This document shows, one piece after another, positions 1 through 45,300 of a DNA stretch of 64,000 nt. How positions within the stretch are numbered: the first letter of the stretch is position 1; the number at the start of each line of letters is the position of its first letter. The DNA is taken from the NCBI GenBank assembly GCA_051294905.1, contig CM119371.1, forward strand, positions 30,196,001 through 30,260,000, read 5' to 3'. Below the pieces are notes generated by a model that saw only the letters and a program-made list of their open reading frames with translations, was not told the DNA's origin and did not search any database. The DNA is from Botryllus schlosseri (Eukaryota). Both the position numbers and the translations under genes were made by a program.

Positions 1-116
1 AGTATTTAATTGAATAATACATTCATATTGAAATAAACCCAAATATATTCGTATATCAACAACAGTTCTGTATACCAACAATGTTATTCTCAATTCTCTA
101 CTAGTTGCTGACGATT

Positions 117-150
117 ACTCCTGACGAGTGTCAGCCGAAAATATTCGGGT
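117..150 (+). ncRNA. Minimal type-I hammerhead ribozyme motif in a Penelope-derived short repeat
   Basis: ACUC-CUGACGA-GUGUCAGCC-GAAA-AUAU-UC-GGGU: intact core, stem I ACUC/GGGU, palindromic stem III (AAUAUU). Confidence 0.7.
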
Positions 151-225
151 TCATTTCAATATGAATATGTTGAAGTTTTGTACTTCCGAGAAATTCTCTA
201 GCAATAAACAAAACATTTGGCTTAC

Positions 226-352
226 TTTAATTTTCTTAGTTCTTGCGGGAAAGAAGTTGGCTTTTTCATGGGAGTATATGTGTCCTGCTGGCCGGAAACG
301 TCGAATGATTTCTTTCTGATCGCCGACTCGATGGAATTTTCGTCGTGAGAGT
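226..352 (-). CDS. NBEAL1: NBEAL exon 38 SHDENSIES...QELRKL
   Basis: ttcttcag/GTAAGC, 127 nt, phase 1-2. Confidence 0.8.
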
Positions 353-3300
353 CTGAAGAATTGCCTTTGAAACAATTTGGACGGAATTAATTTTCAAATA
401 CCCAATGTGAAGACAGCTAATTTATTTCACCACCATGAGAATGTTTACGAAAATAAAAATTTTACCACGATTTCAATTCGAAGAACCTTACCCTTGTCGA
501 CGCTGTGGCCCTCCGTAACGCCTGAATCTGTGCTTGGGGTCAGGACGCTGTCGGATACTGTCCCGGCGTCCTCAGATCTAGGCAGGGAACGCATTGATTT
601 GCTATCTGCCTCATAAATAACTAATAGGATTGTTCAAAATAACTTCAGATTTATTACGTTATTGTAAAAAATTGTTAGGTTGGCTAAAAAAATGATTGAA
701 AAACAAATTTGACTCGATTCCAATACGTAGAAACGAACTTTTTCGTTATTAATTACGGGATTACTCACCGTCAATGCTATTTTTGCAAATCCGAAATTTA
801 CAGCTGTAGTATCTATGCTTCTACCAGTGTGAGCGAAAATCTTTAAGCATCATTATTTTAGACAATTTGACGATTTTATGGGGTTGACAGTAAAATTAGA
901 AATATTCTTTTTCAAATATTCATGGTAAATTCAAAATTTTTCAACTCCCACGCACATCTACTAATTGGAAGTGAGCCAAATTTGGTGTGCAACGTCTTTT
1001 TAGCGGACCCAACAATTTTATGGAATAGCTGCCAAAATTTTTTAAAAAGGCCCTGCCCTTATAGTATATAAGTTATGGAGTTGACAGCACCTACTGCACT
1101 GCACTCACAATGCTTTGTGGAATGTTCACAAGGCTAAGTGAACACATGTTCAACCGCAGAAAAGTGTTCAACAAAACTCAAAGATAGCCTAAGTTCATAC
1201 AAGCTCACATGGTTATTTAGACTGGCATTCAAGTTCACAAGAACATTTCAAGTTGAAGGCGATCTCTAATGACCTCGCCATTTCGAGTTTACATAACCTT
1301 ACGAGTTCATTTCAACTTACATCCAAGTTCTCAAGGATGCTTGAACTCGAGGTAGAGTCAAAATAGGATGATAAGCCTGAGTTCGAACAAGCTCTCAAGG
1401 TTATGTGAACTTGCGTTCAAGCCCACAAGGGCGTTAAAAATCGAGGTTGAGTTCAAATAAACTTGCAGGCTCCAAATAAAAACTAGTTTAATCTGAAGGG
1501 CGAGTTCATACAAGCTCACACGGTTATTCAACTCACATGTTTCAAGTTCACAATAACATTTGAAGTACAGGCTGATCTCAAATGACCTCATGACTGTGAG
1601 TTTACATAACATAACATAACATAACCTCTCAAGGTTATATGAACTTGCGTTCAAGCTTACAAGGGTGTTAAAACTCAAGGTTGAGATCAAATATACTGGT
1701 GAGGTTCAACTACAAAGTACTTAATAATGAATAATAAACGAACGTTTAACCTCAGAAAGATGTTTCAACTGAAGGTCGAGTTCATATAAGCAAACGCGGT
1801 CATTCGAACTCGCATTCAAGCTCACAATAATATCCTAGTAGAGGCTGATCTCAAATAACAAAGCAAGTTAGAGAGTATTCAACCTTACGTTCAAGCGCAT
1901 ACGGATGAGCGATACTCGGGATCGAGTTAAAACAAGATCCTGAGTCCGAGTTCAATCGAGCTAACAGGTTTATTCAAACTTGTGTTCGAATCCAGAATTA
2001 GTGGCAGTGACCAAATGAATCATATATTGAACACTTGGATTCTTGGCCTGGTCCATTTTTTGACGTTTAGATCAAATTATTATAATTAAATTCATTCTAA
2101 CATAGAAAGTCCAATAGTTAGCTGGAAAGCCAATACTTATGGTCATAAATTGCACGCTCTCACCTGATAGAAATGCTACCTCTCTGCGAGGATGTGGAGT
2201 TATACTTCTTGACAAGCAGTCTCGTTACAACATCCTGAACGTATTGAGAACTCGTTACATCGTGAAGACATTGTAATCATTCGATAGAAGAAAAACTTCA
2301 ACAGTTGGGTATAAATAGAGCGTTGCAGGGCTCAATTTGTCAAATTAAGAAACACATAAATATTAAACGGATTCATTCTAATTCGCTATAACTGATCACA
2401 CTCACTCGACTTAGGAAGTTAAAAAAACAGCATTTAACATTAGAGAGATGCTATTTTAAAACCAGGTGAAAATCATTGAGATTACCTGCCACCCAGGCAA
2501 AGAGGAGTATTGCGCTGTGAATCCAGTGTCCGAGTTGAGCATGTGAAAGAGGTATTTGGCTGCGTCGCGCCGCACCGACATTTCGGCGTTGTGGAAGTAC
2601 TGCATCGCAGCCAGAAACGCACCGGCTCCCAGACCTACAAAGCATATCGCGAAAAACCCCTTAAAATACTCAAATAGACAATGATCACGTCACAACGACT
2701 AATTTATGGCTCAGACTATGTCGGATTTGTTCGTAATCAGTTGAGTCTGTATACATGGAAAATGATAAAGTTCAATTGAAAATAAGCCATAGCAGTAGCA
2801 GACTCGGCCAACTAAATAACCTACTGTTTTCCTTAGATAGGTGTCGTTCTAGCTTCGGATTTCTAAAAGGGAGTTGATTCTAGTTCTAGCTCAGAGTTTT
2901 GAGTGGTTCTAGTTCTTGTTCCAGTTATCGATTTTGAAAAGTGAGCAGCTCCTGCTCCAGTTGCGAGTTTTGAACTGTGAATAGTTCTGGTTCTACTGGC
3001 GCATTTTAATAAGCGAGCAGTTCTAGTTCTAGTTGCGCACTTTAAAAAGTGGTTAGTTCTAGTTCTAGTCGCGAGTTTGGAAAATTCAGTAGTTCTAGTT
3101 CTACATCTAGTTGCGCATTTTCAAAATTCATAAATTCAGTGGCGAAACTTCAAAATTGTTGCCACACTGTTTCGCACAATTTGCCCAAACAAGCTGGGGG
3201 GGGGGGGATAGCCCAACCCAAGCACCCAAAACAGTAATTGAAAACCCATGCTTCTGAAGGTCGGAAGGTGGAAACGCATTCTTGCCTATCTTATCGCATT

Positions 3301-6300
3301 ATGCACACTCGGTCATCTTCACAATACGGCAGACGTTGTGAAATATATTCCAATGTCAGTGCCAATTATATGGCCTATTTTAGCGGGAATCACGGATATT
3401 TTGCTGTCAAGAATTAGATTTTGAAGCATTCTGAATAAATAAACCTAAAATAAAGAAAAAACCTTTGACCAGTATTTCGGTGTATGGATACGCGATGGAG
3501 TATGATATCAGGTCAATATAACGTCGCAGTGGCATCAGAGAAGCTCACGTTTATTTTTAACAGACCAGTTTTTTCATTTTCTTTCAACCATCAGCCATGC
3601 ATGTTTTACACAATGTTAACAATAGGCATAAGCTCCATAAGCTGATTCCACCACGTCGATATCGGCCGGGCCTTGGACATCTATTGTAAATTCATCATCC
3701 TTTATTGTTTGCAAAACAAGTTCAAGTTCATTAGCTAAAAGCAGGCAGCATACATGTTTCAAGCAGGTGAATTAGAGTGTCTATGAGACGTACTGAGCGA
3801 AACAGAATATCTCTCCACCAATAGTACTACACAAAATAATTCGTCACAGGGTGTTTCAATCACGAATAAACAAAGCTTGCCTACAAGTTTACTGCAGGTA
3901 TAGAGAGAAGAGCTGGAGGAGCACTTGAGTAGAGTTAGTTCCACCATTTCATGCCAGGACAAGAGAAAAAATCAAACCAATCAATACATGCGGCTATGAC
4001 AGATTGATATGTGGAGAAATCAAAAATTCGGACAAATCAAAAGGTACTAAAAATTCCGATCGGATCCGAGTATTTTCGACAAGAGCATCACCCGTATTTC
4101 AGAACGATACTATTTTGTTCTATTACACCGTATCTTACGTTTCGATTTTTTACTCGCCGAGCAGGATTCCGCTGAAGGCAAATTGAGAATTACGATATCA
4201 AATATCACTATTTTGAGTGGCTACCATCTTTAACCTGGTACGTTCATTAATCGAGATTACTAATACAACAGATCATAACAAGCAAGTCAATCTCGGCTAT
4301 AAGCTTCACAAGAAATGATTTGTATCGAAAATATTTGTTACTTTCATATCGTATACTTTGTATGCGAATTTTAGGGTCCGTAATTCTGATTGCCGTATCA
4401 TCATTAATTTTGCTTTTGAAGACAATAGAATCTTGAAACCAGGCACCAGACAAGTACTGTGTTTTTGCAATGGATGGCCTAGTAAAATAATCAAGTTATG
4501 CACCACAAACTAGCTCTTTAAGCATTCAGTATTTGATGGCAGTTCTGTTAATGTTCTGTACTATGTGTACGGTATTTATTTTGTGTAAAGTTTGAAGTTT
4601 ATAGGTCTCTGAAACTAAACCATCTTGCTCTACATTTAGTAAGCCAGTGATTAGGGCACATTAGCACGTTCACAAGAATGCAAATTAATATTTCAACAAA
4701 TACAAAATGCATTTAATTTTGTTTATCCTATTTATTGGGTTCTGAAACTCAACTATATCTCTAGATTTGGTAATCCAAGGGTTTACGGCATATGCCTGCA
4801 TCAGATAATCTACAGTAAGCCAAGTGAGTAGTATAGTAAGCTACATGACAGCATTAGTAAGAACTCTAACACTACACTTCAACAAATACCCACCAATTTC
4901 AACGACGAGATTAAGAAAATGCGAACAAAAGGCTCTGGTCGGTTGTACGTGCTTTAGTCGCATTGTAAGCGCCGAAAACCCGACAGGCTGCAGCTTCAGA
5001 AAAGACTTGTTCTTGTCGTAAACGAATTCCGTCTTCAACAGCCTCGTGAGCAGCTAAGTGTAAGTAAAGAGCAAAATCGCATTTTTTAAGGCTTGTTATG
5101 AGGTGGGGCATCGAATTAACTACAGACTGAAAACTATTATCGTATAAAAACCGATGTCTAAAGCACATGTGCAGACACTGCGCCAGCATTTTTCTTTGTT
5201 TCGTTGTTACAAAATCGCGTAGAATGTATATATGCACTGGCACATACTCAATGCCCAAGACACAGACCAAATATCAAGGGCTGCAGACTTGATGCCAAGG
5301 TCCACAAAATTAATGCCAGGGGCCCCAGACCAAATACCGAAAAGCCACAAACTCAATGCTAGGGGCCAATACTTAATTTCAAAGGCCACATACTCTATTC
5401 AAATTACACCAAGGGTCACAACATCGATGCCAAGTGCCAAAGACTAAATGGCAAAATCCAAAGATTACACATTTAACTCTAAGGGCCACTAATGCAATGC
5501 CAAGGGCCACAGACTGAATGCCAAAAGCCACTAACTCAATGCAAAGGGACACTAATTCAATGCTAAGGGCCACACTCTGAAAGCCAAAAGTTACTAACTC
5601 AATCCAAAGGGCCACAAACTAAATGCTACAGGCACTAACTTAATGCCAAGGCGCACAAACTCAATGCTTAGGGGACGAACTTAGTGCCAAGGGCAACAGA
5701 CAAATTTAATGCCAAGGGCCATAGCCTCAATGCCAAAAGTTACTATCTCAATGCAAAGGGCCACAAACTAAATGCTACAGGCACTAACTTAACGCCAAGG
5801 CGCACAAACTTAATGCTAAGGTCCACACACTTAATTCTAAGACCACAGACTCAATGTTAAGGAACCATTAGCTCGTCGACATCTTACTTTGCAAGCTTTG
5901 ATGCGTATCGCCTCCGTAAAGCGTTCGTCTGACAAAACGACGTAAAGGATGTCGGCCTTGCCATGCTCGAACAGCAGACAGTTGAGATGGCCGCGGCAGG
6001 GACACTCCAGCAATGCGTTCAGAAGGTCGAAGCATTCAGACAGCTGCAAAAGAAAGCCAGTATACAATTGAATAGTATATTCATATTGAAATGAACCCGA
6101 ATATTTTCGGCTGACACTCGTCAGGGGTAATCGTCAGCAACTAGTAGAGAATTCAAAAGAACAGCGTATATATGTCAGCCGAAAATATTCGGGTTCATTT
6201 CAATATGATTATACTATTCAATAGCATATTGATGTTCTGTACCTCCAACAAGCTGTTCAAAGCCAATATAAGTACACATAATCAAAACATTCCTGCGTTC

Positions 6301-9300
6301 TGTTCGAATTGTAAGTAAAACGGATAAAGTTTTGACGTCGGCACCGCAGAAAATACCTTGAATTGACTGTTGGAGGTCAAAACTAGAACATACAACTTAA
6401 TACCATATTCATCTTGAAACAAACCCAAATATTTCAACGGACATTGAATATACTAAATGTATATTGCCTACAATTATTATTGATGTACAATGTTCTTTCC
6501 GATTCTCTACTAGTTCCTGACGATTACCCCTGACGAGTGTCAGCCGAAAATAATCATGTGTATTTCAATATGAATATACTATTCAATTGTATGTTGAAGT
6601 TTTGTACCTCCAAGTGTATTCAAAAGATGTAATAATTTAGGATTTAAAAATTTTATTCGGATTGAGACTTCAAATAGAAATATTAATCCGGATACAGCTC
6701 AGGATTCGACTCGGAACTACCTTCATGGATCTGGATTTGTATTTATGTCTCAGACTCTAAATCCAGTTACTAAGGTTTTGTATAAGACATATCTTCCTCA
6801 ATTTGGACTTTTGGCAGCGTCACAGACAACCTAAACCCACCTGAGTCTCCTCGTCATCCTTCGCAGACACGATGAAGCCGAGTATCGAGTCCAATTCGTC
6901 CGCCGTGATGTCGCGCGCCGCGTAACACTTCACGAGACCGAGCAACGAGCTGCGTATCACTTTGGTGTCGTCCGCACTCAAATTCGGATCTGCCGAGCTG
7001 CAAATCAGAGATGTGCGGAACAATATTACAAATTGCAAATCCAAATATTTCAGTAACAAATAATTCCGAATTCCAAATATTTCAGTAACAGCTACCTATT
7101 CCAAAATTATACATATAATCTCAGTCAAAACTATATATTATTACTAACCTACGGATAGATATGCAACTCGCGGTGGTTAAGCTTGGGCAAACAGTGTCTC
7201 TTAATGCTGAGCAATCTAAAAGTAGCATAACCGGTAGTGCTATAGCTGGCGAAAGCTAGTGTCGCACCGATTCCGAAAACACAAGGTAAAATCTTATCAG
7301 GGCAATGGAACCAGCTAAAAACATCCCTTAAAAACGGCATTGTTCCAACAATAGCAGTCCACAACACAATAAGCATAACAATGTCCAATTTCGTTAAGCT
7401 GATATTTGAAACAATGCCAATTTTCAGACTTTGAGGGCTGTTTTGAGGTAGTTCCATTGCCCTGACAAGATCTCAATTTATATTTTCGGAATCAGTGCAA
7501 CACTAGCTTCCAATTAGGACCAGTTTTGCTAACTTTTAGTGCTTGGGTCGCCAGCTATCGCACTACCAATCATGCTGCTTTTAGATTGCTCAGCAATAAG
7601 AGAGACTGCTTGCTCAAGCGCAACGATGGGTTTTGCGCGAGTTGCGTATCTTACCAGTTTCATACCATAGGCCGGACCAGATATGTGCTATCATTTGTTA
7701 CAATAACGTACAAAGCCAGTCAACCAACAGACACACCGACAACTCACCAGTAATAGGTCTTGATCACGTCGAGCATGTATTGCACTCCGTATTTTTTGCG
7801 AAACAGCTTCCGATTGTCCTTTATAACAGTGGCGAGGTACTGAATGTGTCCGATGCGTACCAGAAACTCGCTACGACTCCAGATGCTAACGAAAAAAATG
7901 ATATGCTCAAAATAAAAATATCTTCCGAGGACACTTCAACTATTACACATTAAAATATGCAGAGATGATCAAAGTATTACGTTCAGTTCAGTAATTTTCA
8001 ACAGGAAGCCCAAGCAACCACCCAAAATACATTTATGGGTCCGTGCTAATACTGATAGCTACAAAATCTTGTGGAGTCTTACCGAAAATCAAAAAGTAAA
8101 TACTGGTAAATCTGCTGCAGCAAGTTGTTCCCAGACTGTACCGACGCGTCGATGGACTCGACTAAAAGTTGCGTAGCGGTAAGAACGTCCGTATCGATCA
8201 GCTCTGTCGGCATCTTTGGATTAAATACTATATTAAAGCCAGGGAAGTGTTACAGACAGGCTATGGTTACACTCAATCAAACAATATTAATCTCGATCAC
8301 AAGTTGTTATAGGTGTGCCCATTAGTTTGGATTGTTCAAATGATCACCAAACTGGTGTCTGTACAAAATCAACATATGGAAGTTGGCTGCAAATTCCAGC
8401 ACAATTAAAATAATTTACATAATATGGTGGTTTTTGATTCGCCTTGGTTTTGACAATAGGCTAGCCTATACAAAAAATACTCATGACAAACAGGCATATA
8501 GGCATCTAGGTGTCACCAGATCACAGGCAAAAGCATTGCAAGTTGTAGCTGATCAAATATTGTAGTTTGATGTGGAACAAAGATGAGAACATGGATGCAT
8601 AGGTTATCTTGACTTAATATGACCTCGGCCAAACTGGGTTCGGGAGTTTAAATTGCTCATCGTGGCCTCACTTTTAAATAAATCGGGGTCATGTCAGCAA
8701 GACTCAACTGCCTGATTCTTTAAAGTATCAATACATTAAAATCACATATAAATTGCACGGTTTTTCTTGATGACAAAATCTTTTCGTTACTTCGATTGCC
8801 GTCAGCGTCACTGTTGCATCATTAACACAATTTAGCGTGTGATTTACATTGTCTCGAAGCTTCCAAAATCATGGCGAATTAGACAAAAACACACAAAATA
8901 CCTCTGTAGATACGTACTCGTAGCTGAAAGGCAATAAATTAAAACGTAGAATGTTATGGGTGTGAAATTTCAGACTGAGAAAATCCTGGAAACGTTTTTT
9001 CCAGCTTAAAACAGGGTACCACGCCATCGCACCTCTATTTCATACATAAGAAAACAGACAAACATACTTTCCTTTTACTATACATTAACAGTAACACAAT
9101 GAACATTGGTAATACATAATTTATAGTGAACTTGAAAGTATTGACCATAAAATATACCAAAATATTAGTACCGCATATACCCATATGTTACAGTATTATG
9201 ACAGGAAGTTGATATGCTAGGGATGCTGAAGAGTTGCCAATTTTTCGTGGGAAATGATTAGGGAAACAATTGACAAGACCTCAAATAAAGCTAAGGTACG

Positions 9301-12300
9301 CATCTGGCTGGAATTACGTTGTACAGGACTACAGGTCTATTCAATGAAATATTTCTGTGATTCATGGTTGTGAGGGGGGTTTATGGTCGTAGTTTGAAAG
9401 CGCAAGTGCCACGTCAGCATGATCTGCGTGAGAGTCACGCTAATTACACCGAGAAATATTTCTAATAGTCATTTTCTAACGAAATCCCACATATGGCTAG
9501 TTGGGGCATTGATGAAATGTTGTGATTGCCAACAACACATTACCGCCGTATATACATTGGCACATTGTCGTCATGCAGAGTCATAGGCTACGTAACAATC
9601 TACATCTACAATAAAGATATAAAACATATAATATTTATTAAACATAAAAAATCAATGGTTTAATTCCAGATTTGCACACAGCTAATGTCCAACTGTTGTA
9701 ACACCTTTTTCATCCAGGCGGTCAGGCCAATTCTGACCAGCTTACCTTCTGCAGTAGAGCCCCGATAGTGGCTACGCCACACGATTGCACTAAATTGTCC
9801 TCGTTGATGTCGTGTCTGCCGACCGTGCCCAGACCGGAGTGGACGATGAAATTTTTCAGCAAGATCAGGAACGCGGCTACGTGATTCTTTTGCAGTTTCA
9901 AATCTGAGCACCGAGAAAGAAAGCCACTTCAAGCGGAAGTAGATACCGAAAGGTCTGAGACCTTCATACATTTTGCAGTTGATCGGGAGTGGGTTCTTTC
10001 AAAATATGAGGGTGCATTTTCCAAAAATACATTTAATTACCATGCCACGGACGCAATTACTACACTCGGTTATGAAAATCCTATCAAACTTTTACAAGTG
10101 AGAAGGTCAAAACAACCGATGGATATAGCCTCCGTGTCATGGTAACAGACTTGTACAAACTACTCAATTATTTAGTTGACTGTCAAGTAACTAACGGCTT
10201 TTCAAGTAGTTCTGGTTCCAGTCGCAGAATTTGAAAAGACCTTAGTTCTAGTTCTACAACTAGAAAACACGTGCCGGTTTACGGGGAAGAAACTAGAAAC
10301 CCCTCCGATTTCCATTTCAAAACACCGTCTTTTTCAGGGGCAACTTTGGACTTAGGTAGCTTTGGACACTAAGCAGTAACAGATTTAAATGGTTATTGAT
10401 GAAAAAGGGTTGCCGCTGGATGTCTAATCCGTTTTCGTGAGGCAACAGTACCAAAAGCAGTCTCACTAAAAGGTGGATTCATTTCACTACCAGATAAACT
10501 TGATCCAACATTGATAAATTAATAGCGGGGGTCAATTTCATAAAATTGATGGCTGTCAAAATTCTTATAATCAAACATAGATAGCATGTGAGTCATAGAT
10601 TCAAAACTTGGTAGCAGATACCTCTTTAAGTAGTCTTAATCCATGGCAAAAATCTCAGTGGGCTCACCCTCAGATCATTATAAGAGAATGCGATGTCCAA
10701 AGTTACCCCGTCAAATGTTATCAGAACGGGGTAACTTCGGACAGTGGAAAATGCGATATTTAGAGCTTTGGAAAGTTGCTGCTTCATCTGTGTCGAAGTG
10801 TAACTTTGAAAAAGGATAATTTACAAAAATAAAGTACTTATTGTTGACCATGAAGATTTTGGATTAGTTAATTCTAATCTTTGTTCCATAACCTCTGAAA
10901 AACACAAAACTTGCCTCCACTACACTCTAGCATTTCGTAGATACAAAGCGAAATTGTTGAAAATTGTCCAAAGTTACCCCGGTTTATGGTACAGTGGTTA
11001 TAGTTCTAGTTGCGAATTTTGAAAATCGCGTGGTTCTAGTACCAGTTACGAGTTTTAAAAAGTGGTTAGCTCTAGTTCTAGTAGCACATTTTGAAAGACT
11101 AGTAGTTTGCACGATGTCATCAACGCAGCATACTTACCGCAAGATTTCGGACTTTCAATCACGACCCACTCCATGTCTTCTCCGAGAGGGGTGTTGGGGG
11201 ATGGTGATAAATCGTCGTCTTGCATTACGTCGCCGTTGGGACTGTGAAAATCGGTTGAATAGTATTGCTATCCTGTCTTTGTTCGTTAGTAGGGCTGTGC
11301 CGTTACAACAGTATGTAGGATGTGAAATGTTCAAATAGATATCACTGCTTGAGTGATATAGAAAGGAATGGCTCGCATTCATAACAATTTCCTCAGTGTT
11401 AACGGTTTCTGGCCCTATTTTCCTAGTATCAGGACTTACAGACGAAACACCAATCATGTGGTGACTTTACTATTCTCGCAAGTTACAATGAAACGTCTGT
11501 CTTGGCCGTCCTAGTCTCGAGTCATATGATTGGGTTAGAGTCATGCACAATGACTCGAATACAAGTCGAGTGAATTCAAGAATTGACTCGAGTCAAGTCG
11601 AGTCGCCAAAAATCACAACCAGCCATTTCTCGAGTCACTACTACCCTGTGTATCACTACATCTGAAGTTAAAAATACCTCGATCAAACACAAGTCTCGAT
11701 ATATCAGTATAGTTTAGATGTCAACCTTGTCGGTTCCAATTCGCCGTTGACCCGTTTGAAGTACATCGTGTTGATTTCTTCGAGCAGGGGAAAAAGAACG
11801 TGAACGCCACCGATTGCGTTTATCGAGTCCTGAAATCATACGCAAGAAACAAATAAAGCACGTCAACCTTTCGCATGGAGGTTGGTATATTCACGTTGAA
11901 ATGACCCCGAATATTTCCGGCTGACACTCGACAGGGGTAATCGTCAGCAACTAGTAGAGAATCGGAAAGAACATTGTCTATCAACAATTGTATCACAAAA
12001 TATGACGTCGCCGGCAGGAAATTTCGAATTATCGGAGCGAAGAGATCACTTAATCATGTAAACAAGCACCTTTTGTTGGCACAAACTTCGTTGGCGTAAT
12101 TTGATCAAAGTCAACTCAAAGGCACACAAATCAAAGTGTGAACGCCCGACGAGAAATCTGTTATCTCGATAATTTTCACAGTTCCACACGTTAAAAAGTA
12201 TTTGAAAAGTGAAGACTCCTATTCGTCGTGACCCTTCCCTGTATCAGAAAGCAAAGAAATTTTCATACCTTTACGTCCCACGTGACGACTTTATGTCCAG

Positions 12301-33300: not shown

Positions 33301-36300
33301 AAGTCGAGTCAACACAGAGATTGACTCGAGTCGAGTCGAGTCATATCCGTATTTTGAGAAAATCGTGACTCGACTTTCAGCATTTCAAAATACCTCTACC
33401 GAAATCTCAAATCGCGGGGTCGCATAATATGACCTCGGACCAGGTGTTGGTGACCCCTGATATAAAGCATGTAGATGAGGGTTGGTGTGTTCGTAGGAAC
33501 TACCGTTTATTGCAGCTTCATTATAACATCGGTATTGTAACATAGGTATGGTAAACAGATAGAAAAATATCGAAAAGGTCGTGTAACTAATATTATTTTC
33601 ATTCTGATTGTTAAAATTTGAATTCATCCTCACCATACATAACACCATAATGAATCGTACTTCAATACTCAACTAAACTCGAAATCGGACCAATCAGATT
33701 CTCGATTCTGCCCTGGTAATGACACGCCAACTGGAAATTAGCGCTAAATATACTTACTGATCATTTGCAATTGCATATCTGGATTTCCGCTGGATCTGGT
33801 TAGCAGCGAAAAGTATTTGTTCAAAACTTCAGTCACCGACACTTGGCGCTGTGGAATGGATAAGGTCCAACTCATAAAATCATTCGGACAAGAAAGTTTT
33901 TTGGGTGGTCGCGTACTGTTGGTGGCTATTTTCAGATGGAAAGATGTATTTTCATGACTAACGTAAAACAAATAAAGACATCACAAATTGGTACAATCGT
34001 CTAAAACAGTGGTTCTCAATCTTTTTGTCTTCGCGGACCCCAAGTCACGTGCCCCGCTACCAAGCTCGATTATGTGAATTGCGTTAAAAACCAGCAAAAA
34101 CACACCTGGTCCGGACCGGCACCGTGGAGCACGTGTACCATCTTGATAACTAGTCGCAAAACGATCCGGGCGCCATCTGCGTCTTTGCTTTGGCTGATTT
34201 TCCTAGTCGACCCGTCCATGGACACTTCAATTTTCGGCACGAGGGCCCCGTTACTTGTGGCCGACGCCGGGCCGCCGGATTCGTCCAGGCCCATGTACCG
34301 GGACAGGAAACTGGCAAGACATAGTCTCGGTCAAACAAATCGCTATTTTTATCATGCTAGATCAGGGGTGGACAACCTTTTTTTATTCTCGGCCGCATTT
34401 CAATGGTACTTATGTTAGCTACGGTCGCATTCCAGGACACAGCCGAAATGAAATAACTGACGCCAAATACCCATGTTAATCTGTCTTTGCCCATTTCCGA
34501 TGAGCTCTGGACTAAACTACCTTTTCATATCGGCTTACTGCCCATGCGTAGAGCTGATGGAGGGGGTTCAGGGCAAGTTATAAATTAGAATACATTACTA
34601 TTCATGTCATTAGTTGCATGTGTTATCTCCCTTGACCTCCGGTCAGGATTGCCGGTATAGTGGAAAGGTGTGGGAATCGCCCAAAAGTATCAGAAACAAA
34701 TTTCACACGATTCCGCATAGGTACCGTGATTTTCCATGTATAAACCGCAAAATTTTCACGATTTTTTGCCCTAAAATCGGGGGGTGCGTATTATACATGG
34801 AAACAACACGCTTGAAAAAATCTCCCTCGATAAAAAACTTGAAATCACACCTTTCTTCATATTTGTTTCCAATTGCGCATCACTTTCAGCAATAGTGCCC
34901 GGTAATTCGTATTATCAGTGTAACGCGCTACCAATTAGCAAAAAGCGTGTTGCCAATTCACGAGAGTCGTCTGCACAGCACGCAATCTCCTACCAAGTTG
35001 GTTTGCCGTTTGCACACGAGCGAAATTAGGTCATTCATTGATTGCTGAACGCGCGCGCGGCAATACTCGCTACTTCATCGACAGGCACCAGTCGCACCTA
35101 CAACAGACGTGGTGTGCACGACATAATTGTTGGCATGAGCAATCGCATCTGACCTCGTGCGCAAGATGTCGCGTCGCCGGCCTCGCAGGCATTGGCTGCT
35201 ATCTACTGTCGTATAGAGGCAATACCGATACTTGCATAATGATTAGCAATCGCATCTGTAAAAGGCCTCGTGCGCAAGACGTCGTGTCGCTGGCCCGAAC
35301 TGCGTCACCAGCCTCGCAGGCTTTGGCTGCTCTCTACTATCGTTTAGAGACAAAGCCGTTAATTCCATAATGATTAGCGTTGGTTATGTCATGATTGTTT
35401 AACAGTGACATCGCAAAACAGAACATCATCGTGTACTAAAGCACAGCTATCCATGTACTGCGAATGCAGGGTGCGTACTATACATGGGGGCAGGCTTTTT
35501 CCCAGAATTTGCATGCCATTTTAAGGGTGCGTATTATACATGGGGGCGTACTATACTTGGACAATTACGGTACTTCTTTCCAATCCAAAATTCGATTCAA
35601 TTTGCAGTTTTTTTGCAAATTCACCAATTCCAAGTTTAATTTAATTTGGAAAAAACTGTATAGCTAATTATAATTCTAACCCATTAAAATTTTTTTTAGT
35701 ATTATATCCTTATAAACGTTTCCAAACGCAATTATAAAGATCGTTACTTGAGCAAGATATCCAACGTCGTGGTGGAAGACGACAGCAAGGCGTTTCTCTG
35801 CGACCCGCACAGCAACGCGCCGAACATATGCAAGAAATGACGCTGCAAGTCCTCGCTCAACGATCTGTCGTGAGTTTGAAGAGTCCCTGCAACAAAAAGG
35901 AATAGCGATCAACAGATTACCAAACCAAATACAATGCTGCAGTTATTTAAAATGTCTACCAGCTGTTGACGATTACCCCTGTCGAGTGTCTGCCGGGTTT
36001 ATTTCATATGATGATATTATTCAATTGTACACTCAAGAACAATTAAAATATCTTACCATAGAAAAAAGGTATGATGTCCACGTTCAGTAACGGTGTCACG
36101 CTTTGGGCGTCCAAGTTCATTTCGGCACTAGAAAGCAAAAAACATACGACTCAGTGACCCTTAAAGCTGACTACTGAGAATTTACAATGTTATGTCAACA
36201 TATGAATCTCTATTTGAATACAAAATGGACAATGGCACACGGTCAAATAGCAATCCTCATGTAGACTAATAAAAGTGTGTCATATAGTCTCTTGCCCATA

Positions 36301-39300
36301 CAAAGCTTTTATATGGTGTACAATTGAATAACATACCGTATTCATATTGAAATAAACCAGAAAACGTTTGGTTGATACTCGTCAGGGGTAATCTACTACT
36401 TGCTGACTGTTACCCTGACCAGTGTCAACCAAAAATTTTCGGATATATGGCAATAAGAATATATCATCCAATTGTGTATAGACGTTATGCACCTGTGAGA
36501 GTTAATTTAACACAAGATACTGATATATTATTCAAAAGTGTGTTGCCTTGATAGAGTTCAAAGCATTAGGCAATCTAAGCTTATCACCATTTAAAAAACA
36601 AATGAGGGATGAAATTTGGTACTGATTTGCGTCTGTTCAAGGCGGAGAATATACACGGGCATAAGTGGTCAAAGTGCTGTAGTCATTGGGGTTGTCCGAA
36701 AATGATACACATCAATGTCTCATTCCATAGATTATTGATAAAAACATTAATGACCAGTGACCACGCACTAAGCTCACAGGAAAGTCGCTAAGATTCGCGT
36801 GAAGCGTTTTGAGAATAGCTGCGGAACAGTGGACGTGCCAGCGACCATAGAACGGTGAGAAGACTAGTAATCACGAAATCACGGCTTGATTAGATAATCG
36901 GTTATGCTTCAATGATCACGACAGTGGCGGCTTGCTTGATAATTGTTCAAGGAGTCTGCTAATGGCAGTGATTCTGTAAGAGCATTGTAGGTTGGTTGGC
37001 AGTTAATGATTTAAGATTAATTCGAGAGGTGTTGAGTTACGAAATACACAATGAACAAACAGCAGCTTCTTTCCAAAAACTTTTAAACCATGACTGGCTT
37101 ATTGTGAATGAAACTGCTGTAGCCGACATGTCTTGTTTTCATAGATTGAAAGCAGGGAAACACATGGAGAAATATTGCAGTGATGCTTATAGAAGTGGCC
37201 AACGAGCTCATTATTTCAGAAGGGATGCACCATCTTTGAATGCAAATACAAAGATTATCAATGACACTACTTCGTTTGATCTTATTAGGCTTCAGTTGTG
37301 GTATGTAATTGAAGTCATGAATGCTCAAAGGATTGGCTGAATCAGCCGATTATGCTGTGCACTTATCGGATTCTTACAGCTAAACGAATTCTCCCATAAG
37401 TGCTGTCACTATGGTAAAACTACTTCCCACATCACAAAACGATAAGTCTATAAAAAATATGTGGTTTTGCTCAAGAACTCTGAAGTAGAAGTGGGATTCG
37501 TGTAAAACATAAGCAGAGTACAAAACCTACTTTAGTAGTCGGAATAAATAGGAGCACTTCGTCACTAAACACCTCAGTGCCTGGGTGACAGATGACACCA
37601 TGACCAGTATTTCTGTCATCTGAGGATTAGAGCATATCATGTCGTAGGTAAGGTATTTCATACCAATGATACACTACTTCATATGTGAGTATGTTAGCAT
37701 CTCAAATCTCAGTCGTTGGCATTCGCTTTGATGTATACAGCAATGTCATCAAAGTTACTACAGACTGTTATTCAACCACAAAGGCAATGTAACATTGTAC
37801 AATCAAAGATGTCCACAAACCGTTATATCATCAGACACAAGCATATAAAACTCATACACTCCGTGTACTAAACAAATACTACCATAAGGAATGTTACTCT
37901 TGCAAATGGAAGACTGGTCAATGAATTCAGTGGAAGCCATCAAAGGCAAATAATTTTGACACAAATCTTCCTGTTGGAAATAACTAAAACAAACATTGCA
38001 TATGCCTGTATCGTTCCACTACATAAAGTATGTTGTAGTATTGATATGAGGATTCGATGAACCTGTACTGGGACTTTTCGGAAAGTATTCAGAAGGTATT
38101 GTGTACAAAGCCTATACAAATACGGGCATTCAGTGTAAATACCAGTTTAAATATGAAGATGGTAAATAGTTTTGGGACAGGTGTGTGGGCCATCATGGAA
38201 TCTGTAAACTGTAGGTACTAACTCTGGGCAAAATCGAGTGCCTGAGTCACTGAGTGATTGGATAATGAATGGAATATTGTCACTCATCATGACATCATAT
38301 GAGTATAAAAGATGTGGAATTTAAAATATATGTAGCCAACCATTTGTGCAACAACAAAGAATATAATGCCAACACTAAAGATACTTTCAAGGTTGTAACC
38401 AAGTCCCAAGGTGCCGAACCAGAAGTAATCTCTCTTTTATAGTTTTGACTGAGTCAAGTTGAGTCATTTTCAATTCACCACCGACTCAAGTCCGAGTCCA
38501 AGTCAGTGAGTAGAAGGTCGAGTCCGAGTCATAGAGTTGTGACTCGAGTCAAAGTCCAAGTCATTGTGTTCACTATTCAGTTTTGAGTTAAAACAGGTTC
38601 AACACACTATTTTCAACCATTGATATCAGATGGTTCGCATTCATAATATCGTAATTTTGATCAGTCTTACCAGTTTCTGGCCCTACTGCCCAAGTATCAG
38701 GACTGATAGACAAAATACCGATAATGTGGTGACTTAACTATTCTTCGACGTTACAATGAAATGTCAGTCTTGGCCGTCCTAATCTCGAGACATTAATGAC
38801 TTAGTAACAACTGAAACTGAATGAAGGCAAGTTATGTAGGCTAATCACAGAAAAAAAACGAAACTGCCCCTTCAAGTGTACAGGTCTCAGAGCAAAGAAA
38901 ATACAAGATCGATCATGTGATTGTATCAGTATATACTTTTACGAAATTACAAATGACAAGCTTAAAATTCAGTAAAGTGCCTTATTGCCTTATCGCCAAT
39001 CAATACTAATCAATCGGGCTCACAGAAAAGTGAGACAGATACAATGTGCCATTCTTGCAGACACGGTTTTTAGCCCGAGGCCGAAAATTTTATTTTCGGC
39101 GGCTAGAAATATCGCGCGCGTATTTTCGTACAGCCATAGTTCCGAGGGATAGCCGACATGAAAATAAACTTTCGCAAACACAGTAAAATCAGATTATGTA
39201 AAGTTATCTAGAAACTAATTTAACAGCGGTATCAACAGATAACATAACCTGAAGCTACCCGGGCATAAAATCGATTCAGAACATGGAAACTATCATCAAA

Positions 39301-42300
39301 TTTTGTTGAAAGTGGTTGCCACAGATTAATAAAAAGTGGAGAATCAAAGTTTACTAAGCCGAAACAGGCAGACATAGACTAGAAGTAGCCCTCATTGGTA
39401 CCAAGGTAGAAGTATGGTAACGACATAAACTTGTACTCTAGTAAGCCTACAAGTAGAAGCAGCTATTTCAAAGTACGGTATGTTCAACAATATTATAAGT
39501 ATTCTAGACCGCCCTTCTACGTTTTACGCTCAGTAACAAGCCAGTGTTCCCCATGACACATAAATGTTTCCCGTGAACATGTCAAAATTTACAAATGTCA
39601 AAATAGATTATTTAGAGCGAAACAGTAAATTGTTTCAATTCCTTGGCCCCAGAATTGGCCAATTAGACAGTTAGCCTACATTGGTTCTCTAGGATCACCG
39701 AAGCGCAGAATATTGATTTTAAAGATTTTTCACATATAGCGACACCTGGTGACGGGAAAATTCTAAATCGCATCATCTTTTGAACCGTTGAAAATTTTAC
39801 AAAAAAATTTTTTATCACAATTCTGAGGATATGCATTACAGCCCTTGCTAAGTTATAACGGAGTTAGCCTCATCTCGAATTCCTAATTGCAAAAGATAAG
39901 TAGTTTGGTTGAAAATCTGTAGAAGTTGGAGTAGCCCACTGTAAAACATTGCCACTTGGGAATGTAGTGCAAATAGACACATGGGCTACATAACCTACTC
40001 GAGTGCCATACCCTGAAAAAGTACAAGTTTTTCGTTACTATAAATCTCTGTAAACAATATCCCCATTTTTAGGCTTATTCGTCATCGAATCATATTCTCA
40101 CCCCATCATCCTTCTTCTCCAGGAATGTTCGGGATCGTAGAGGCATTCGCAGAGGTGAATCGCGTGATGCACAAACAGCTCGAGCTTTTGAAGTATTTTG
40201 GCGTCTTCGTAGTTGCCGTCTGTTATCTGAGTCGCAAAAAAGAATGGTTAGCACGACTGCACGAGTCTTCTATCGGTCGGCTTGGTTACGGGAGGGATTT
40301 CGGCACTGCAATGCCATTTAAAACAGTGGTTCTCAACCGCTTGTACAACAAATTTATTTCAATGTTATCTCACAATTGCCAAATGCAATAACTTTAACGC
40401 AAGTAATGTCATTGGTTACAAAAATATACCACCAAACTTAAAATTGATTTAGATATTTGGAATGCGTTTTTTACATCATGTCCTATCATATATAGCGTTC
40501 ACAGCAGGGTTGTAAACAAGTCACAGGGCTCCGAGTCACAAGTCAATCTCACTTTTATAGTTTTGACTTGAGTCAAGTCGAGTCATTTACAATTCATCAC
40601 CTAGTCAAGTCCGAGTCCAAGTCAGCGACCAGAGGGTCGAGTCCGAATCATGGTATTATGACTCGAGTCCGAGTCCAAGTCATTGTGATTCCAGTTAAAA
40701 TCTTGTTAAACCCACTTTTTATAACTCTGTTAGGTGATATCGAATGGTTTTCATTCAAAATATACCAATTTTCCTCACTTTCTGGTCGCATTTCCAAGTA
40801 CCAGTACCAATTGACGAAATCCCAGTAGTGTGGTTACTCTACTATTCTTCGAAATTACAATGAAATGTCGGTCTTGGCAGTCTGTGTCTCGAGTCATACG
40901 ACTTGGTTCGAGCCGTGCGTAATGACTCGAGTACAAGCCGAGTCAATAAATAGATTGACTCGAGTCGAGTCATTTCCGCATTATGAAAAAATGACTGGAG
41001 TCAAGTCGAGTCGTCAGAAATCGTGACTCGAGCCGGACTCGAGTCATTGCAACCCTGGTTCATAGTCTACTTTAGCCTAAGCGTATGTCGAAAGAAGACC
41101 ATAAACTTAATGACAAAAAGTGATAAAAAATTTTTGTATAAAATTCGCAAGGCTGTAATGACTCGAGTCAAGACTCGAACTCCGATTTTTAGTAGACTCC
41201 ACTCGACTCGAGTCAAATTATGTACGACTCGGCACATTCTATATGACTTATTCCAGTTTCGTATGTCATGACCGGCAATATCTGTTTGAATAAACATGTT
41301 CAGAGTGAGAAAAATGAGTAGGCCTTACATTATAAATCCGAGACCATCGATATCAACCGAGAGTGATATAATAATTCTTCTCGGACTTAACAACGACTCG
41401 ACTCGATTCGACTCGAGTCAATACGGTAAAAATCAAATGGACTTGTGACTCGGAACCTCAATTGTTTACAAGCCTGGACATTTGGCAGTTTAAGCTAACA
41501 AACAGCAAAGTCGCAGTTCTTTTAAAATAATTGAAGAATATCAAGCGGGTTTGTGATTGCAACAGGATTTCAAAGCATAGAACTTCAATATAACCACAAT
41601 GAACATCAAAAAGGCAGCAGACACAACACAACCTTACAATCTGCAATCGCTGATCAACAGTGCACTGGACTTCAAAGGACTTACAATTTGAACGACGGCC
41701 GTCGCGATATTCAGAACGAGCCCGACCAAACTTGCGGAAGACAGAAGCTTCAAGTTTTCGTGGTTCCTGAAACGCAGCTCATTAAAAAGACGAAACCAGC
41801 AAGTGCTTTATTGAGGACACCCATAATTCACACGCACAGAACTATTGACAATACCATCTTCCCGCAGGCTTGTCTAAAACTACAAATCAAGCTAGTTGAT
41901 GTTCAACTAAGGAACTGTTTTTTCAAGTACTTCTAGTGCAGTGGTTCCCAACCTTTTTGTCTTCACTCCCCACTTCAGATTTATTCCAAGTCTTCATTCC
42001 CCACTACCAAAAACTCCTACATACCCTTTAAAATAGGGTCATCCTATTTTGAGATCCTAAAAAGGAGACGCTTTTTTTTAATTCTGAAAGCTCCGAGAAA
42101 ACTTGTGATTTTGAAATTTTTTCGACCGATAGTATTGTGCTCACTAAAGAAAGGGTCATCACTTTGTTTCAGCTCCGGATTTTTTAGGAAATCCTGATGT
42201 TCGGCGCGTTGGAGTTGCATTTTTGGTGGCATTCAAATCCTTTTCAGAGAAAAAGAGGACGAATTCCCAAAAAGAGGGCATTTAGGCGTCCTCCGAGGGC

Positions 42301-45300
42301 ACTTTCATTTATAATTTTCGATACACACATTCCAGAGCAGTTAACTGGTAACGGTAATTGCGCATGTGTCTCCGTAAATATGTAGACTATCCTGTATATA
42401 ATGTTTGTTCCCCACCAGAAACCATTGAATTCCCCACCGGTTGGGAACCAATGTTCTTGTTCAAGTTGTGTACTTTGAAATGTGAGTAGTTCTAGTTCTA
42501 GTTGCGGATCTAAAAAATATTTAGATCCCGAACAACTAGAATACAAGCGCATCGCAGTTTGGCGTGAATCATGATACCTGTATTGGCATTTTGTCGTGTG
42601 ACATCCCTGCAGCCCTTACGAGCTCAGAGTCATCACTACCAACAGTGATGGGGTGGGATTAGGGTGTGGAAACGCCTCCCATTTCCAACTCTTATTCATG
42701 TTATGTGGTAAGCTGACATGATTTCGGTAAAATGAAAATCATTATGTTGGTTAGGATTCGAATGTAGTTAGTTATGCTTTGGTTAATTCTAGTTGTGAAT
42801 TCTAAAAACTGAGTAGTTCTAGTTGTAGTTGCACATTTTGAAAACCCAGTAGTTTGTCACACTGTGCCTTGTTCACTATATATCATTCAATCCTAGTACC
42901 ATAACACCGAACACTATCAATGACCTCTGCCGTTTGCATTTACACTCATAACGGAAAGCGATATCCATATTTTCAAATGAAGCTGCATTATTAGGAAGCG
43001 CATCTGCGCGTGAAAATAATCATCCTTTACATGTAATAAATGTCTGAACAAATGAGAGTATAGGCAAAACACGAGGATGGCATAGAAGTATTTCTACTTC
43101 AGGTCTATTTCCGTTCTAAGCTACACCACTCATTTAGGCCACACTTCTTTTGTACTATATTGATGGAATATTTGAATAACACTTTCTGAAAGACCCATCT
43201 CAGACTGAGCCAAGCTCTGAAGTTATCTGCAACCATGGAAGACTCTCTATGATCGCCATTTCTCCAACAGATAAACAGATTATAATCAATGGAAAAATTA
43301 TTGTTCACTGCCCAATGGCCACAAATTATGTTATTTTCCATCTACAAGGTAATAGTTTCAAACTAGCGAAGGTATAGATTTTTGTCAGAATTTTAAAAAT
43401 TTCGCGTACAATTTGATGCAGCCGTGTTGGATGGCAATGTCGCAATGGCACTCAACAAATTGAGCATACAAAATATCAAGTAGGAATTTGAATAGACTCT
43501 TGGAGGTGCAGAAACGCAATATAAAATTGCATTAAATTCATATTGAAATAAGCCCTAAGATTTTCAGCTAAAACTCCTCAATCGTCAGCAACTAGTAGCG
43601 AAATAAAAATAACACGGTATCTCAGCAATCACATAAAAATTGTAGCTTACAGAGTTGGCAGATACAAATACAAAGGCCTACCTAATCCCAACTTCAAACC
43701 ATTTGCTACCCGAACGACATTTACAAATGTAACTACGTGACTTTGGACCCCACCAAGTGCACATTCCAACCTATTCAGGAATTGAGCATTACAAATAACA
43801 ATAACAAAACTATTACAAGCTTTCTTACTGAGGCCCGCTTCACTGCTTCGATGCATTCAAAACAAACATGCGTGCAAATGTAACATACCGTGGAAACCAA
43901 ATTATACATGTAGGCCTACCCTATATCCTTTACCATTACCACACTATTATTAGGCCTACCACAAACTACTATTACAGATATTTGTATGGATTTGATATCA
44001 CAGAACTTACTTGCAAATAATAACCAATGTCTTCACAAGGTTTGTCGCGTAGACCACCTTTTCCACCTTGAATTTGGAATTATCGGGAGATATCGCCGAA
44101 GTTTTGCAATAATCGTGTATGCCCATTAGCTGCCTGCTTGCGGCCTGTGAAAAAGTTAAAGATTAGATTCTAGTAGGTTAAATTCACACATACATATAAT
44201 TCATAATTAAAACTAACTTGTAGGAACTGGTCCGGTAAATCAGACAGCTTCGGAGGTCCAAGGTCGATCTCGGAGTCTTTCGGGTTTTGCAGCAGGCTGA
44301 CCGGAGCAGATACCGATCTTGGTTTCGTGGGTGTGGATTTTCCATTCTGTAAACGAAATTCCCATTGCATTGAGCACGTCGGTAGGCTGTGGAGGCACAA
44401 GTTCACACAAACTCTAGCTGTTAATGGCCGGACAGCTAAAATCAGGCATGCCGCTAACATTCGAGTCACATCAATATACCTACCATATTCTTTCGAATCA
44501 TAATTTTCTCTGGTAACCACAAATATTAAGATATTGTGACTTTCTTCCAGAATGCAATAGCGTGTTTCACCTGTGCATTTCATACTTGTGTCATACGATA
44601 AGCGTGTTATTACTGAAGCGTTATGTGTGCTTCTAAAGCTACACTTTTGGCAGAATACTTGATGAAACCGAAAGACTTTTCGTGGGCTTCTTATCGAGAG
44701 TTTACAACACACAAGCTTAGAAATGAAGCAGCTGGAATATTGGTGGCGAAACACCAAGTCTGAAAAATGATAGCTGGGCTTGCTACTGTGGCTGTGACTA
44801 CACAATAGCGAAAATTAGGACCCATCTAAGAAGTAGAGGTAATTTGTTACCGACAAAGCTCTGATGATGACATGAAATTGGATTTTTGTCCCCATCAATG
44901 TAAGGACAAAACCAAGATATGCACTTGACTGCATACTGTACGCGAACCTCAGAAACTTGCACAATGTATTGCGGGCTAGTGACTCTCCCAAACAAATGAT
45001 TGAGTTTGGGTAGCCTTGTTGATTTCATACCGTAAAGAGCACTGAGCAGCTCACATATAAACAAGGATCTGAAAATTCACTTTCTGCATGCAAAACAAAA
45101 GTTATTTTATGTACAGGTGACCCTAAATGGCCTACATTAGTACATTATTATCATTTGTCTTTGTAATACCATGGGAATCCATAGATTTCTAGCATTTCCA
45201 GGAGACTATACCTCAGAAGATAATGGGCAAGGAACATACTTTACGCCCTACACTTGGAATGAATGATTGAAACTAATTTTAATAATTGTAATCCTGGCGT

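Follow-up and report, generated by a model that had tools for sequence, protein, structure and literature searches.

The short repeats scattered through a 64,000-nt stretch of the Botryllus schlosseri genome (the whole stretch analysed, hereafter the window) are very probably end fragments, 5'-truncated and often arranged head to head, of an autonomous Penelope-like retroelement that is intact elsewhere in the genome, with the hammerhead ribozyme being a passenger and the copies likely dead on arrival. All copies in the window map onto the end of this intact element, which measures 2,684 nt from hammerhead to hammerhead and contains an 848-aa RT/GIY-YIG ORF, and their colinearity with it bears out the link to Penelope-like elements made in the preliminary description.

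The parent element

The intact element is present in many copies that are 99–100% identical, and in a search with an ORF-end fragment all 40 scored hits (the best 40 of 1,733 candidates) were ~100% identical. Its hammerhead sits in the pLTR, and the ORF starts with an ATG 15 nt past C17, the predicted cleavage nucleotide, from which all element positions given here are counted as 0. The 848-aa ORF matched RVT_1 (E 8e-9) and, weakly, GIY-YIG (E 0.022, below the cut-off), the latter being matched by 6 of 20 relatives at E≤0.05 (best 1.4e-4). The motifs DKG, YVDD and VYEY..C.C.YVG could be read directly in the ORF, and a family profile compared with the PDB gave six hits, weak TERT matches among them. 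An extra Zn-finger in the RT–EN linker is found in Neptune and Nematis and not in Penelope/Poseidon; no CxxC was seen by eye in the linker of this ORF. With a single ORF having the RT followed by a C-terminal GIY-YIG, the element is, judged by its sequence, a canonical EN+ Penelope-like element. Tandem or partial tandem pLTRs together with an inverted 5'-truncated arm were present at loci L051, L054 and others, and further intact tandems were found. When the ORF was used in tblastn against the window, copies were matched at both ORF ends (E 1.8e-23, 1.2e-9 and 1.9e-4).

Copies within the window

Sequence alignment confirmed that all 11 sites listed in the preliminary description are copies of one family, and two further sites, at 29314–29383 and at 48397–48978 (the latter of a second family, B), bring the window to 13 sites with 19 aligned fragments; shuffled and reversed queries against a random set gave no hits. 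The genome-wide count that had been suggested as a check came to an estimated ~43,000 fragments. The repeat had been described as a unit of 150–250 bp without an ORF, which does not hold: fragments span 44 to ~400 nt with variable 5' ends, three window copies retain endonuclease codons (the C-terminus being encoded at 12049–12204, 27894–27938 and 48486–48781), and the 3' flank consists of ORF codons 1–20.

At the window start, an inverted arm (8–51, minus strand, element −10 to +33, 86% identity) is accompanied by a forward arm (78–190, plus strand, starting at −68), identified by alignment and hammerhead descriptor. The hammerhead of this forward arm (107–150, plus strand) has its leader at 107–112, stem I at 117–120/147–150 with one U–G, core at 121–127, G–C pair at 128/136, loop II helix strand at 130–135, GAAA at 137–140, palindrome at 140–145 and C17 at 146. 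A complete head-to-head insertion lies at 6053–6270, inside the spliced intron 6044–6840, with a minus arm (6058–6171, −72 to +41), a plus arm (6173–6261, −17 to +71) and a 12-nt target duplication (6053–6064/6259–6270, one mismatch). Its hammerhead (6095–6138, minus strand; leader 6138–6133, core 6124–6118, C17 at 6099) is the only one in the window to match the intact element throughout. An older head-to-head insertion at 6358–6624, having a minus arm at 6358–6434 (−7 to +70) and a plus arm at 6476–6624 (−79 to +71), carries a mutated 3' strand of stem I.

Two truncated minus-strand copies follow, both with mutated cores, at 11885–12204 (−277 to +24 by blastn, with the endonuclease C-terminal codons at 12049–12204 being degenerate) and at 14400–14478 (−50 to +28, in the spliced intron 14185–19794), and then a minus-strand fragment without GAAA at 23625–23680 (−72 to −17). 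The plus-strand copy at 27887–28146 (−183 to +74) comprises the last 15 endonuclease codons (27894–27938), the 3' UTR, a hammerhead with a 3-nt deletion in loop II, a tail of ORF codons 1–20 (28084–28143) and a 12-nt duplication (27887–27898/28135–28146). The newly added site at 29314–29383 is a tail-only fragment on the plus strand (+8 to +74). A head-to-head insertion with a mutated core occupies 32336–32525 (minus arm 32336–32424, plus arm 32419–32525, −66 to +38), and an old one, with both cores mutated, 36323–36494 (arms 36323–36393, minus, and 36392–36494, plus). Two other old copies have lost the GAAA region (35955–36037, plus strand, −49 to +44) or stem I and part of the core (43486–43630, minus strand, −80 to +72). 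The family B insertion, which was likewise absent from the earlier list, spans 48388–48987, with a minus arm at 48397–48462, a plus arm at 48486–48978 that encodes the endonuclease C-terminus (48486–48781), a 12-nt duplication (48388–48399/48976–48987) and a hammerhead at 48893–48937 having a U3–A8 core and an AAGCUU palindrome.

The hammerhead and its predicted pseudoknot

Both a descriptor and the comparison of families confirmed the minimal type-I hammerhead with palindromic stem III as a motif. The minimal-hammerhead descriptor gave six hits in the window and none in the reversed window, and four of the six had a palindromic stem III (121+, 6124−, 28047+ and 48907+). The pattern CTGANGAN{2,30}GAAA matched 20 times in the window versus 5.27 expected, with none of 100 shuffles reaching 20; several of the 20 matches are nested, as each copy has a second CUGACGA 13 nt further upstream. 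A scan of the window with Rfam gave eight weak matches, none reaching the gathering score, and no hammerhead; the minimal motif lies below what Rfam can detect. The three motifs that the preliminary description quoted are found where it placed them, with the corrections that 117–150 reads ACUC, not ACCC (a U–G wobble), and that 28043–28073 is short of 3 nt in loop II, a loss that removes the pseudoknot described below.

Two of the 17 family A fragments in the window are identical to the intact element in core, stem I and G–C pair, nine are mutated and six contain only part of the motif. Over the dispersed copies the core differed at 51/457 positions (0.11) compared with 350/2803 in the flanks (0.09/0.14; Fisher p 0.49). 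Core conservation in excess of the flanks was not seen across the genomic copies, one half of what the preliminary description itself had named as speaking against its reading; the dispersed copies are therefore likely in neutral decay.

Between families the picture was one of retention. Stem I, the closing pair and a palindrome, full or nearly so, are retained in families A–D and in four metagenome families, and a U3–A8 core variant occurs in families B, C and L137 in place of C3–G8; of 25 ORF-end matches among the metagenome relatives, only 8 were followed by a hammerhead-like motif. On the aligned sequences, the ribozyme is conserved across element families, with compensatory changes. We also predict a 5–6-bp pseudoknot between the 5' leader and loop II, which was absent from the preliminary description. 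The leader/loop-II pairing of seven families corresponded to 1 of 5,040 permutations in a permutation test that left out family B (the chosen copy being core-mutated, with a helix equal to that of A) and L123 (being close to L119), and this covariation shows selection on a folded ribozyme. Taking the upstream CUGACGA for the core was rejected, since it serves as the pseudoknot leader and the C3–G8/U3–A8 covariation sits in the downstream CUGACGA. An A6U core as a feature of all of family D was also rejected, with 21 of 23 motifs reading CUGAUGA.

The minimum-energy fold of the monomer consists of two decoy hairpins, not the hammerhead, and dimer energies from ViennaRNA were uninformative because pseudoknots are not scored. 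Cleavage is predicted to occur after UUC in a palindrome-paired dimer that the leader/loop-II pseudoknot holds in place, and in such a model the hammerhead would likely be functional only in the tandem RNA of the parent element.

Ends, arms and target duplications

The 5' ends of 49 fragments were scattered from −2033 to +22, with 15 of them at −65 to −89, a cluster that could reflect a preferred RT stop, alignment decay or a short master. The 3' ends were sharply grouped: out of 31 young ends, 18 fell at +28 to +36 and 10 at +67 to +75, with none between (the other three are not ends, and one of the 18 is an older copy running on). Both clusters lie inside the ORF start. Since the copies thus extend 28–75 nt beyond the predicted cleavage site, the template was uncut there. 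Inverted insertions had one short and one long arm in 8/8 cases, differing by ~40 nt, and a 12–13-nt duplication in 7/8, counting bases shared with the element ends. A 12-nt target duplication was kept in 3/13 window insertions versus 7/300 random pairs, with the remaining 10/13 having none.

These features would fit the following course of events. Transcription of a tandem element would run past the hammerhead and on into the start of the following ORF, and the element protein would make a staggered cut in AT-rich DNA. Reverse transcription would start inside the uncut RNA, ~32 or ~71 nt beyond the cleavage site, with both target strands often being primed, one at each start site, to give two opposed arms, and synthesis would usually halt within ~100–300 nt. 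By analogy with the anole element, the short copies would be missing the region bound by the protein and so would not be copied again.

Host gene

The window contains a spliced minus-strand host gene having DUF4704 (neurobeachin/BDCP) exons, with a match in the exon at 6841–6995 (E 0.0067) and in a reading frame at 7747–7935 (E 2.5e-5, above the curated cut-off), and BEACH exons are found on the same strand, 17–25 kb outside the window on the side of its start. A search for homologues with one host exon gave no hits, and a DUF4704 search of the genome did not have the host gene among the matches listed. From these domain matches the gene is of the BEACH family, an assignment that stops short of the NBEAL orthologue. 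The intronic position earlier given to all of the repeats stands for copies in the spliced introns 6044–6840 and 14185–19794, and would probably apply to the others.

Alternative explanations

The preliminary description had seen a non-autonomous, ribozyme-processed SINE-like family without an ORF. In such a SINE- or retrozyme-like scenario, which we consider improbable even for some of the copies, a short ORF-less hammerhead RNA is excised by its ribozyme, may then become circular, and is copied in trans by a Penelope RT. Most copies are indeed <300 nt, many of their 5' ends fall in the −65 to −89 cluster, and non-autonomous PLE derivatives and pLTR trans-mobilisation are reported in PMC8557442, PMC3846280 and bioRxiv 10.64898/2026.07.22.740005. 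RNA reads also pile on the hammerhead segment, which fits circles or tandem read-through alike; these reads come from both strands, and 932/969 in run X23 matched only in part, as passengers in host transcripts would. Read ends showed no pile-up at the predicted cut, in standard cDNA libraries that are uninformative on cleavage. A joint from 4411 to 1730 was rejected as evidence of circles, being the ordinary ORF-to-pLTR continuity of the query stretch. A fixed unit would have a common 5' end and lack coding remnants, whereas the 5' ends are scattered, copies carry endonuclease and N-terminal codons, and fragment lengths grade continuously into those of ORF-bearing copies. All three junctions tested were unique in genome searches with the best candidates scored (28–102 and 6410–6500 to their sites; 6137–6207 with only look-alikes of 78–86% identity over 58–83 nt). 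The window sites had no head-to-tail arrays of a short unit, copies being single or head-to-head, and what repeats in tandem is the coding element of 2,684 nt. Ends away from the cleavage site and the lack of excess conservation also speak against such a family.

Several copies form hairpins with a duplication on either side, as would be seen if the arms were terminal inverted repeats of MITE-like DNA transposons moved by a transposase; with arms unequal in all eight cases, unique junctions and arms that are pieces of an RT-encoding element, this is extremely unlikely. It is just as hard to believe that the host retains some intronic copies as cis-acting ribozymes that cut the pre-mRNA of the BEACH-family gene. 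The fully intact copy at 6095–6138 is sense to the host transcript, but its intron is spliced in contigs of two runs, in the pre-mRNA it is predicted to pair with its own inverted arm into a long hairpin that locks it (−97.1 kcal/mol, z −13.9), and most copies are mutated.

Relation to known elements

Reading the repeats as ends of a Penelope-like element places them in an ordinary class: truncated Penelope ends with hammerheads have been on record from animal genomes since 2014, and the tail and inverted arm had been described before that. The same layout is published in PMC3846280, PMC8557442 and PMC11167929. Like Pen2a_Av of Adineta vaga (PMC3846280) and the general layout in Craig et al. 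2021 (PMC8557442), the present element has a single ORF of ~840–850 aa with RT then C-terminal GIY-YIG, a pLTR including the first ORF codons, a 30–40-nt tail on one end, an inverted 5'-truncated arm, a short target duplication and heavy 5' truncation; the duplication is ~12 nt here compared with 8–10 nt in the rotifer examples (PMC3846280). Compared with known Penelope elements it is a new family in this host, which may already carry a Repbase/Dfam name.

In PAc/Poseidon_Ac of Anolis carolinensis (Frangieh et al. 2024, PMC11167929), too, the tail separates two internal RT start sites, targets are AT-rich and the template is uncut at the hammerhead. PAc is cut 26 nt inside the ORF, whereas the ATG here follows the cut, with RT start sites ~15–20 and ~55–60 nt into the ORF, and the two arms use different sites in 8/8 genomic pairs, whereas PAc showed no strand difference in vitro. 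The minimal template of the anole element requires the first 172 nt of the ORF, and its transposition in vitro works without hammerhead cleavage (PMC11167929).

The core, short stem I, G10.1–C11.1 pair, palindromic stem III, U3–A8 variants and mass occurrence as single truncated copies agree with metazoan PLE minimal type-I hammerheads (Cervera & De la Pena 2014, PMC4209133). Those have a long helix II of 6–8 bp (PMC4209133; review PMC6765202), in contrast to the one-pair stem II here, with predicted pairing between its loop and the 5' leader. A 5–6-bp pseudoknot from the stem I side to the stem II side, a single-pair stem II and C3–G8 to U3–A8 covariation are found in hammerheads of PMC3088659 (2011), where the one-pair example that was tested is of type II and metagenomic; here the predicted knot occurs in a eukaryotic retroelement, together with a palindromic stem III of the dimer type. 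A type-I hammerhead and a Penelope connection are also seen in non-LTR retrozymes (bioRxiv 10.64898/2026.07.22.740005; PMC7229834), which are tandem ORF-less units with a hammerhead per repeat, whereas the copies here are single or inverted, length-variable and carry ORF ends. Within the ribozyme fold only the predicted knot looks unusual; a literature search by titles and abstract starts found no leader/loop-II pseudoknot in PLEs, and Lunse et al. 2017 or the supplements of PMC4209133 may already show it.

We tentatively propose, as a possibility that we hold to be doubtful, a Penelope clade with a distinct hammerhead build, having a one-pair stem II, a covarying 5–6-bp loop/leader pseudoknot and a palindromic dimer-type stem III, that would cleave rapidly as soon as two tandem copies have paired, and whose two-armed insertions would each draw on the two RT start sites, with a different one for each target strand. 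Because the element is abundant and very young, its intact copies being many and nearly identical, its insertion geometry (two start sites, asymmetric arms and a ~12-nt duplication) is measurable on thousands of events. For the role of Penelope ribozymes, this clade offers a sharply defined construct to test; if the proposal is true, it would give a fast-cutting contrast to the sluggish minimal hammerheads tested so far, and the cleanest handle yet on what the hammerhead does in Penelope elements.

Dispersed copies and their parent element

The repeat with its hammerhead motif was seen in the sequence at 1-190, 6058-6624 and 27889-28143, and all 11 sites of the preliminary description were recovered by blastn and nhmmer, together with two extra sites at 29314-29383 and 48397-48978. 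Aligned against a natural reference unit, this gave 19 fragments at 13 sites. A loose core pattern yielded 20 matches, some nested, against 5.3 expected, and a structural descriptor for minimal hammerheads found four palindromic ones in the window but none in its reversed sequence; Rfam detected no hammerhead motif in the window. Of 40 random 10-kb genome stretches drawn, two did not exist and the 38 used held 33 fragments (1.2% of bases), with zero matches there for shuffled and reversed queries. These counts gave a genome-wide estimate of about 43,000 fragments (bootstrap 21,000-69,000), and the window carried about 3.4 times the average density.

Using the 28-kb copy as a genome query (913 candidates, best 40 scored), we found that many of 30 fetched loci extended upstream into a frame with a GIY-YIG-endonuclease-like end; break points differed between loci, and the sequence often doubled back into an inverted copy. 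The frame itself matched at about 100% identity in all of the best 40 scored of 1,733 candidates. Intact or long ORFs were present in 10 longer stretches, including locus L051, where a partial tandem carries an inverted arm, and the tandem locus L054. The resulting Penelope-like element, family A, has a unit of 2,684 nt from hammerhead to hammerhead and an ORF of 848 aa, with the ATG 15 nt past the predicted cleavage nucleotide and the stop codon 125 nt upstream of the cut. RVT_1 was matched at E 8e-9; the GIY-YIG motif gave a weak Pfam match, was found in 6 of 20 relatives and was readable by eye. Among 8,000 scored proteins, 2,516 proved to be relatives, the top one being 64% identical. Many relatives (P0002, P0009, P0016, P0038) lie on contigs of about 2.7 kb, near one element unit, which may be either collapsed tandems or circles.

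The window copies span -331 to +82 of family A, relative to the predicted cleavage nucleotide. The repeats had been described as lacking any ORF, which was wrong, because endonuclease codons survive in three copies and ORF codons 1-22 are matched by seven stretches. The genome holds at least three more Penelope families, B, C and D, with intact tandems in C and D. The family-B insertion of the window (48388-48987) is flanked by inverted repeats of 212 nt, 89% identical, at 48121-48332 and 49046-49257, probably a foldback or MITE-like element hosting it. Intact families coexist at loci L199-L228 (e.g. G000:C6:30407922-30418982), some of which carry arrays of 3-4 full units, the families being about 58-60% identical over the C-terminal 560 aa.

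Ends, junctions and target duplications

Breakpoints were collected from 52 fragments of the window and random set, of which 49 were retained after removal of two from family B and one below 72% identity. Their 5' ends were scattered between -2033 and +22, 15 of them lying at -65 to -89. Two of three inverted-arm junctions tested were found only here, and the third had only look-alikes of 78-86% identity and variable length. With scattered ends and unshared junctions, the proposed SINE-like short master was not supported. Among 31 rows for 3' ends of young copies, 18 fell at +28 to +36 (one being an older copy running on) and 10 at +67 to +75, the others being two internal tandems and one locus edge. 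All eight inverted insertions examined had one short and one long arm, seven with an AT-rich duplication of 12-13 nt, counting bases shared with the element ends; a 12-nt duplication was kept at 3 of 13 window insertions versus 7 of 300 random pairs. At L085:7650-7900, an inverted arm was joined to a deep RT-region piece (-2033 to -1876), a sign of template jumping.

This insertion layout is that of Penelope elements as published (PMC3846280; PMC8557442). The former describes Pen2a_Av with an 842-aa ORF whose first 12 codons lie in the pLTR (the repeated element end); one inverted end bears a 31-bp tail, and the duplication is 9 bp. PMC11167929 traces a PLE tail to two internal RT start sites, with RNA uncut by the hammerhead.

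The hammerhead within and between families

In the dispersed copies, the catalytic core differed from the intact element in 51 of 457 cells (0.112), compared with 0.093 upstream and 0.141 downstream (p 0.49; p 0.74 after dropping three subfamily sites), and the hammerhead was intact in 10 of 49 fragments, mutated in 25 and partial in 14. The excess conservation of the core raised in the preliminary description was thus absent, and with core rates like those of the flanks and few intact motifs, the short copies are likely not under selection for the hammerhead.

Between families, the motif is clearly under selection. The core pair C3-G8 is replaced by U3-A8 in B, C and locus L137, a core already known (PMC4209133; PMC3088659); the stem III palindrome changes from AAUAUU to AAGCUU, and stem I varies but stays paired over 4-8 bp. 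Loop II is moreover complementary to a leader 8-11 nt upstream of the core, which the preliminary description overlooked, with predicted helices in seven families of GCUGAC/GUCAGC, CGUGCC/GGCACG, ACUAAC/GUUAGU, UCCGAC/GUCGGA, UGACGC/GCGUCA, UCUGA/UCAGA and GCAUU/AAUGC. Matched pairs totaled 40 bp, a sum attained in 1 of 5,040 permutations (the mean for mismatched pairings was 2.95), in a set chosen by short loop II and not by the pseudoknot, which had been noticed beforehand in several. Pseudoknots and one-pair stem II occur in other hammerheads and affect speed (PMC3088659). The short-loop, one-pair stem II seen here differs from the long helix II of PLE minimal hammerheads, which have low activity as dimers, as described in PMC4209133; remoter relatives at metagenome loci also have a long helix II. 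Our literature search, which did not extend to Lunse et al. 2017 or to one supplement, found no report of a pseudoknot in PLE hammerheads. Against the ribozyme count a hammerhead-like motif behind only 8 of 25 ORF-end matches in metagenome relatives and a monomer minimum-energy fold predicted as two decoy hairpins.

Host gene, RNA and other features

The host gene is on the minus strand, spliced and has DUF4704 exons; BEACH exons 17-25 kb further on would belong to it. The described intronic position was confirmed for the copies in introns 6044-6840 and 14185-19794 (CT..AC joints) and is inferred for later copies, because RNA mapping covered 1-20,000. Intron 6044-6840, which holds the sole fully intact window copy, is spliced, and structure prediction for the pre-mRNA has this copy paired with its own inverted arm. 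RNA depth, taken from three raw runs and one contig set, was highest on the pLTR, on both strands, with the ORF interior nearly bare and most reads being partial fits (932 of 969 in X23), which fits passengers in host transcripts. No pile-up of RNA ends was seen in these data, which is uninformative on cleavage since such libraries miss these ends.

A second dispersed family, rich in GACTCGAGTC palindromes and with weak miRNA-like Rfam matches, was present on both strands at 11388-11625, 22626-22941, 26662-27105, 29881-30197, 32863-33363, 38450-38805, 40505-41020 and 59037-59252. We also noted a long inverted homology of 89-92% (10355-10991 versus 24658-25929, about 14-15 kb apart), a 36-nt periodic repeat at 2912-3152, 10961-11109 and 42451-42856, and a 21-nt minisatellite at 5241-5871. 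Other retroelements left remnants at 58831-59163 (minus; RVT_1, E 1.6e-5), 57324-57659 (plus; aspartyl protease-like, E 0.009) and 60012-60365 (plus; LINE-like C-terminal frame by eye, no Pfam match). Just upstream of another insertion, L004:1-700 (oriented) holds what we take to be an inhibitor-of-apoptosis-like frame, BIR-type.

Proposed mechanism

The analysis directly supports a parent element with which the copies are colinear, the geometry of their ends, the duplications, the neutral decay of these copies and the covariation between families. Judging from structure, the ribozyme may form the pseudoknot and cleave as a dimer. By analogy with anole work, insertion would be primed on a nicked target, RT would start at internal sites on uncut template, and a binding region past the tail (the ORF-start piece beyond the cut) would be absent from short copies.
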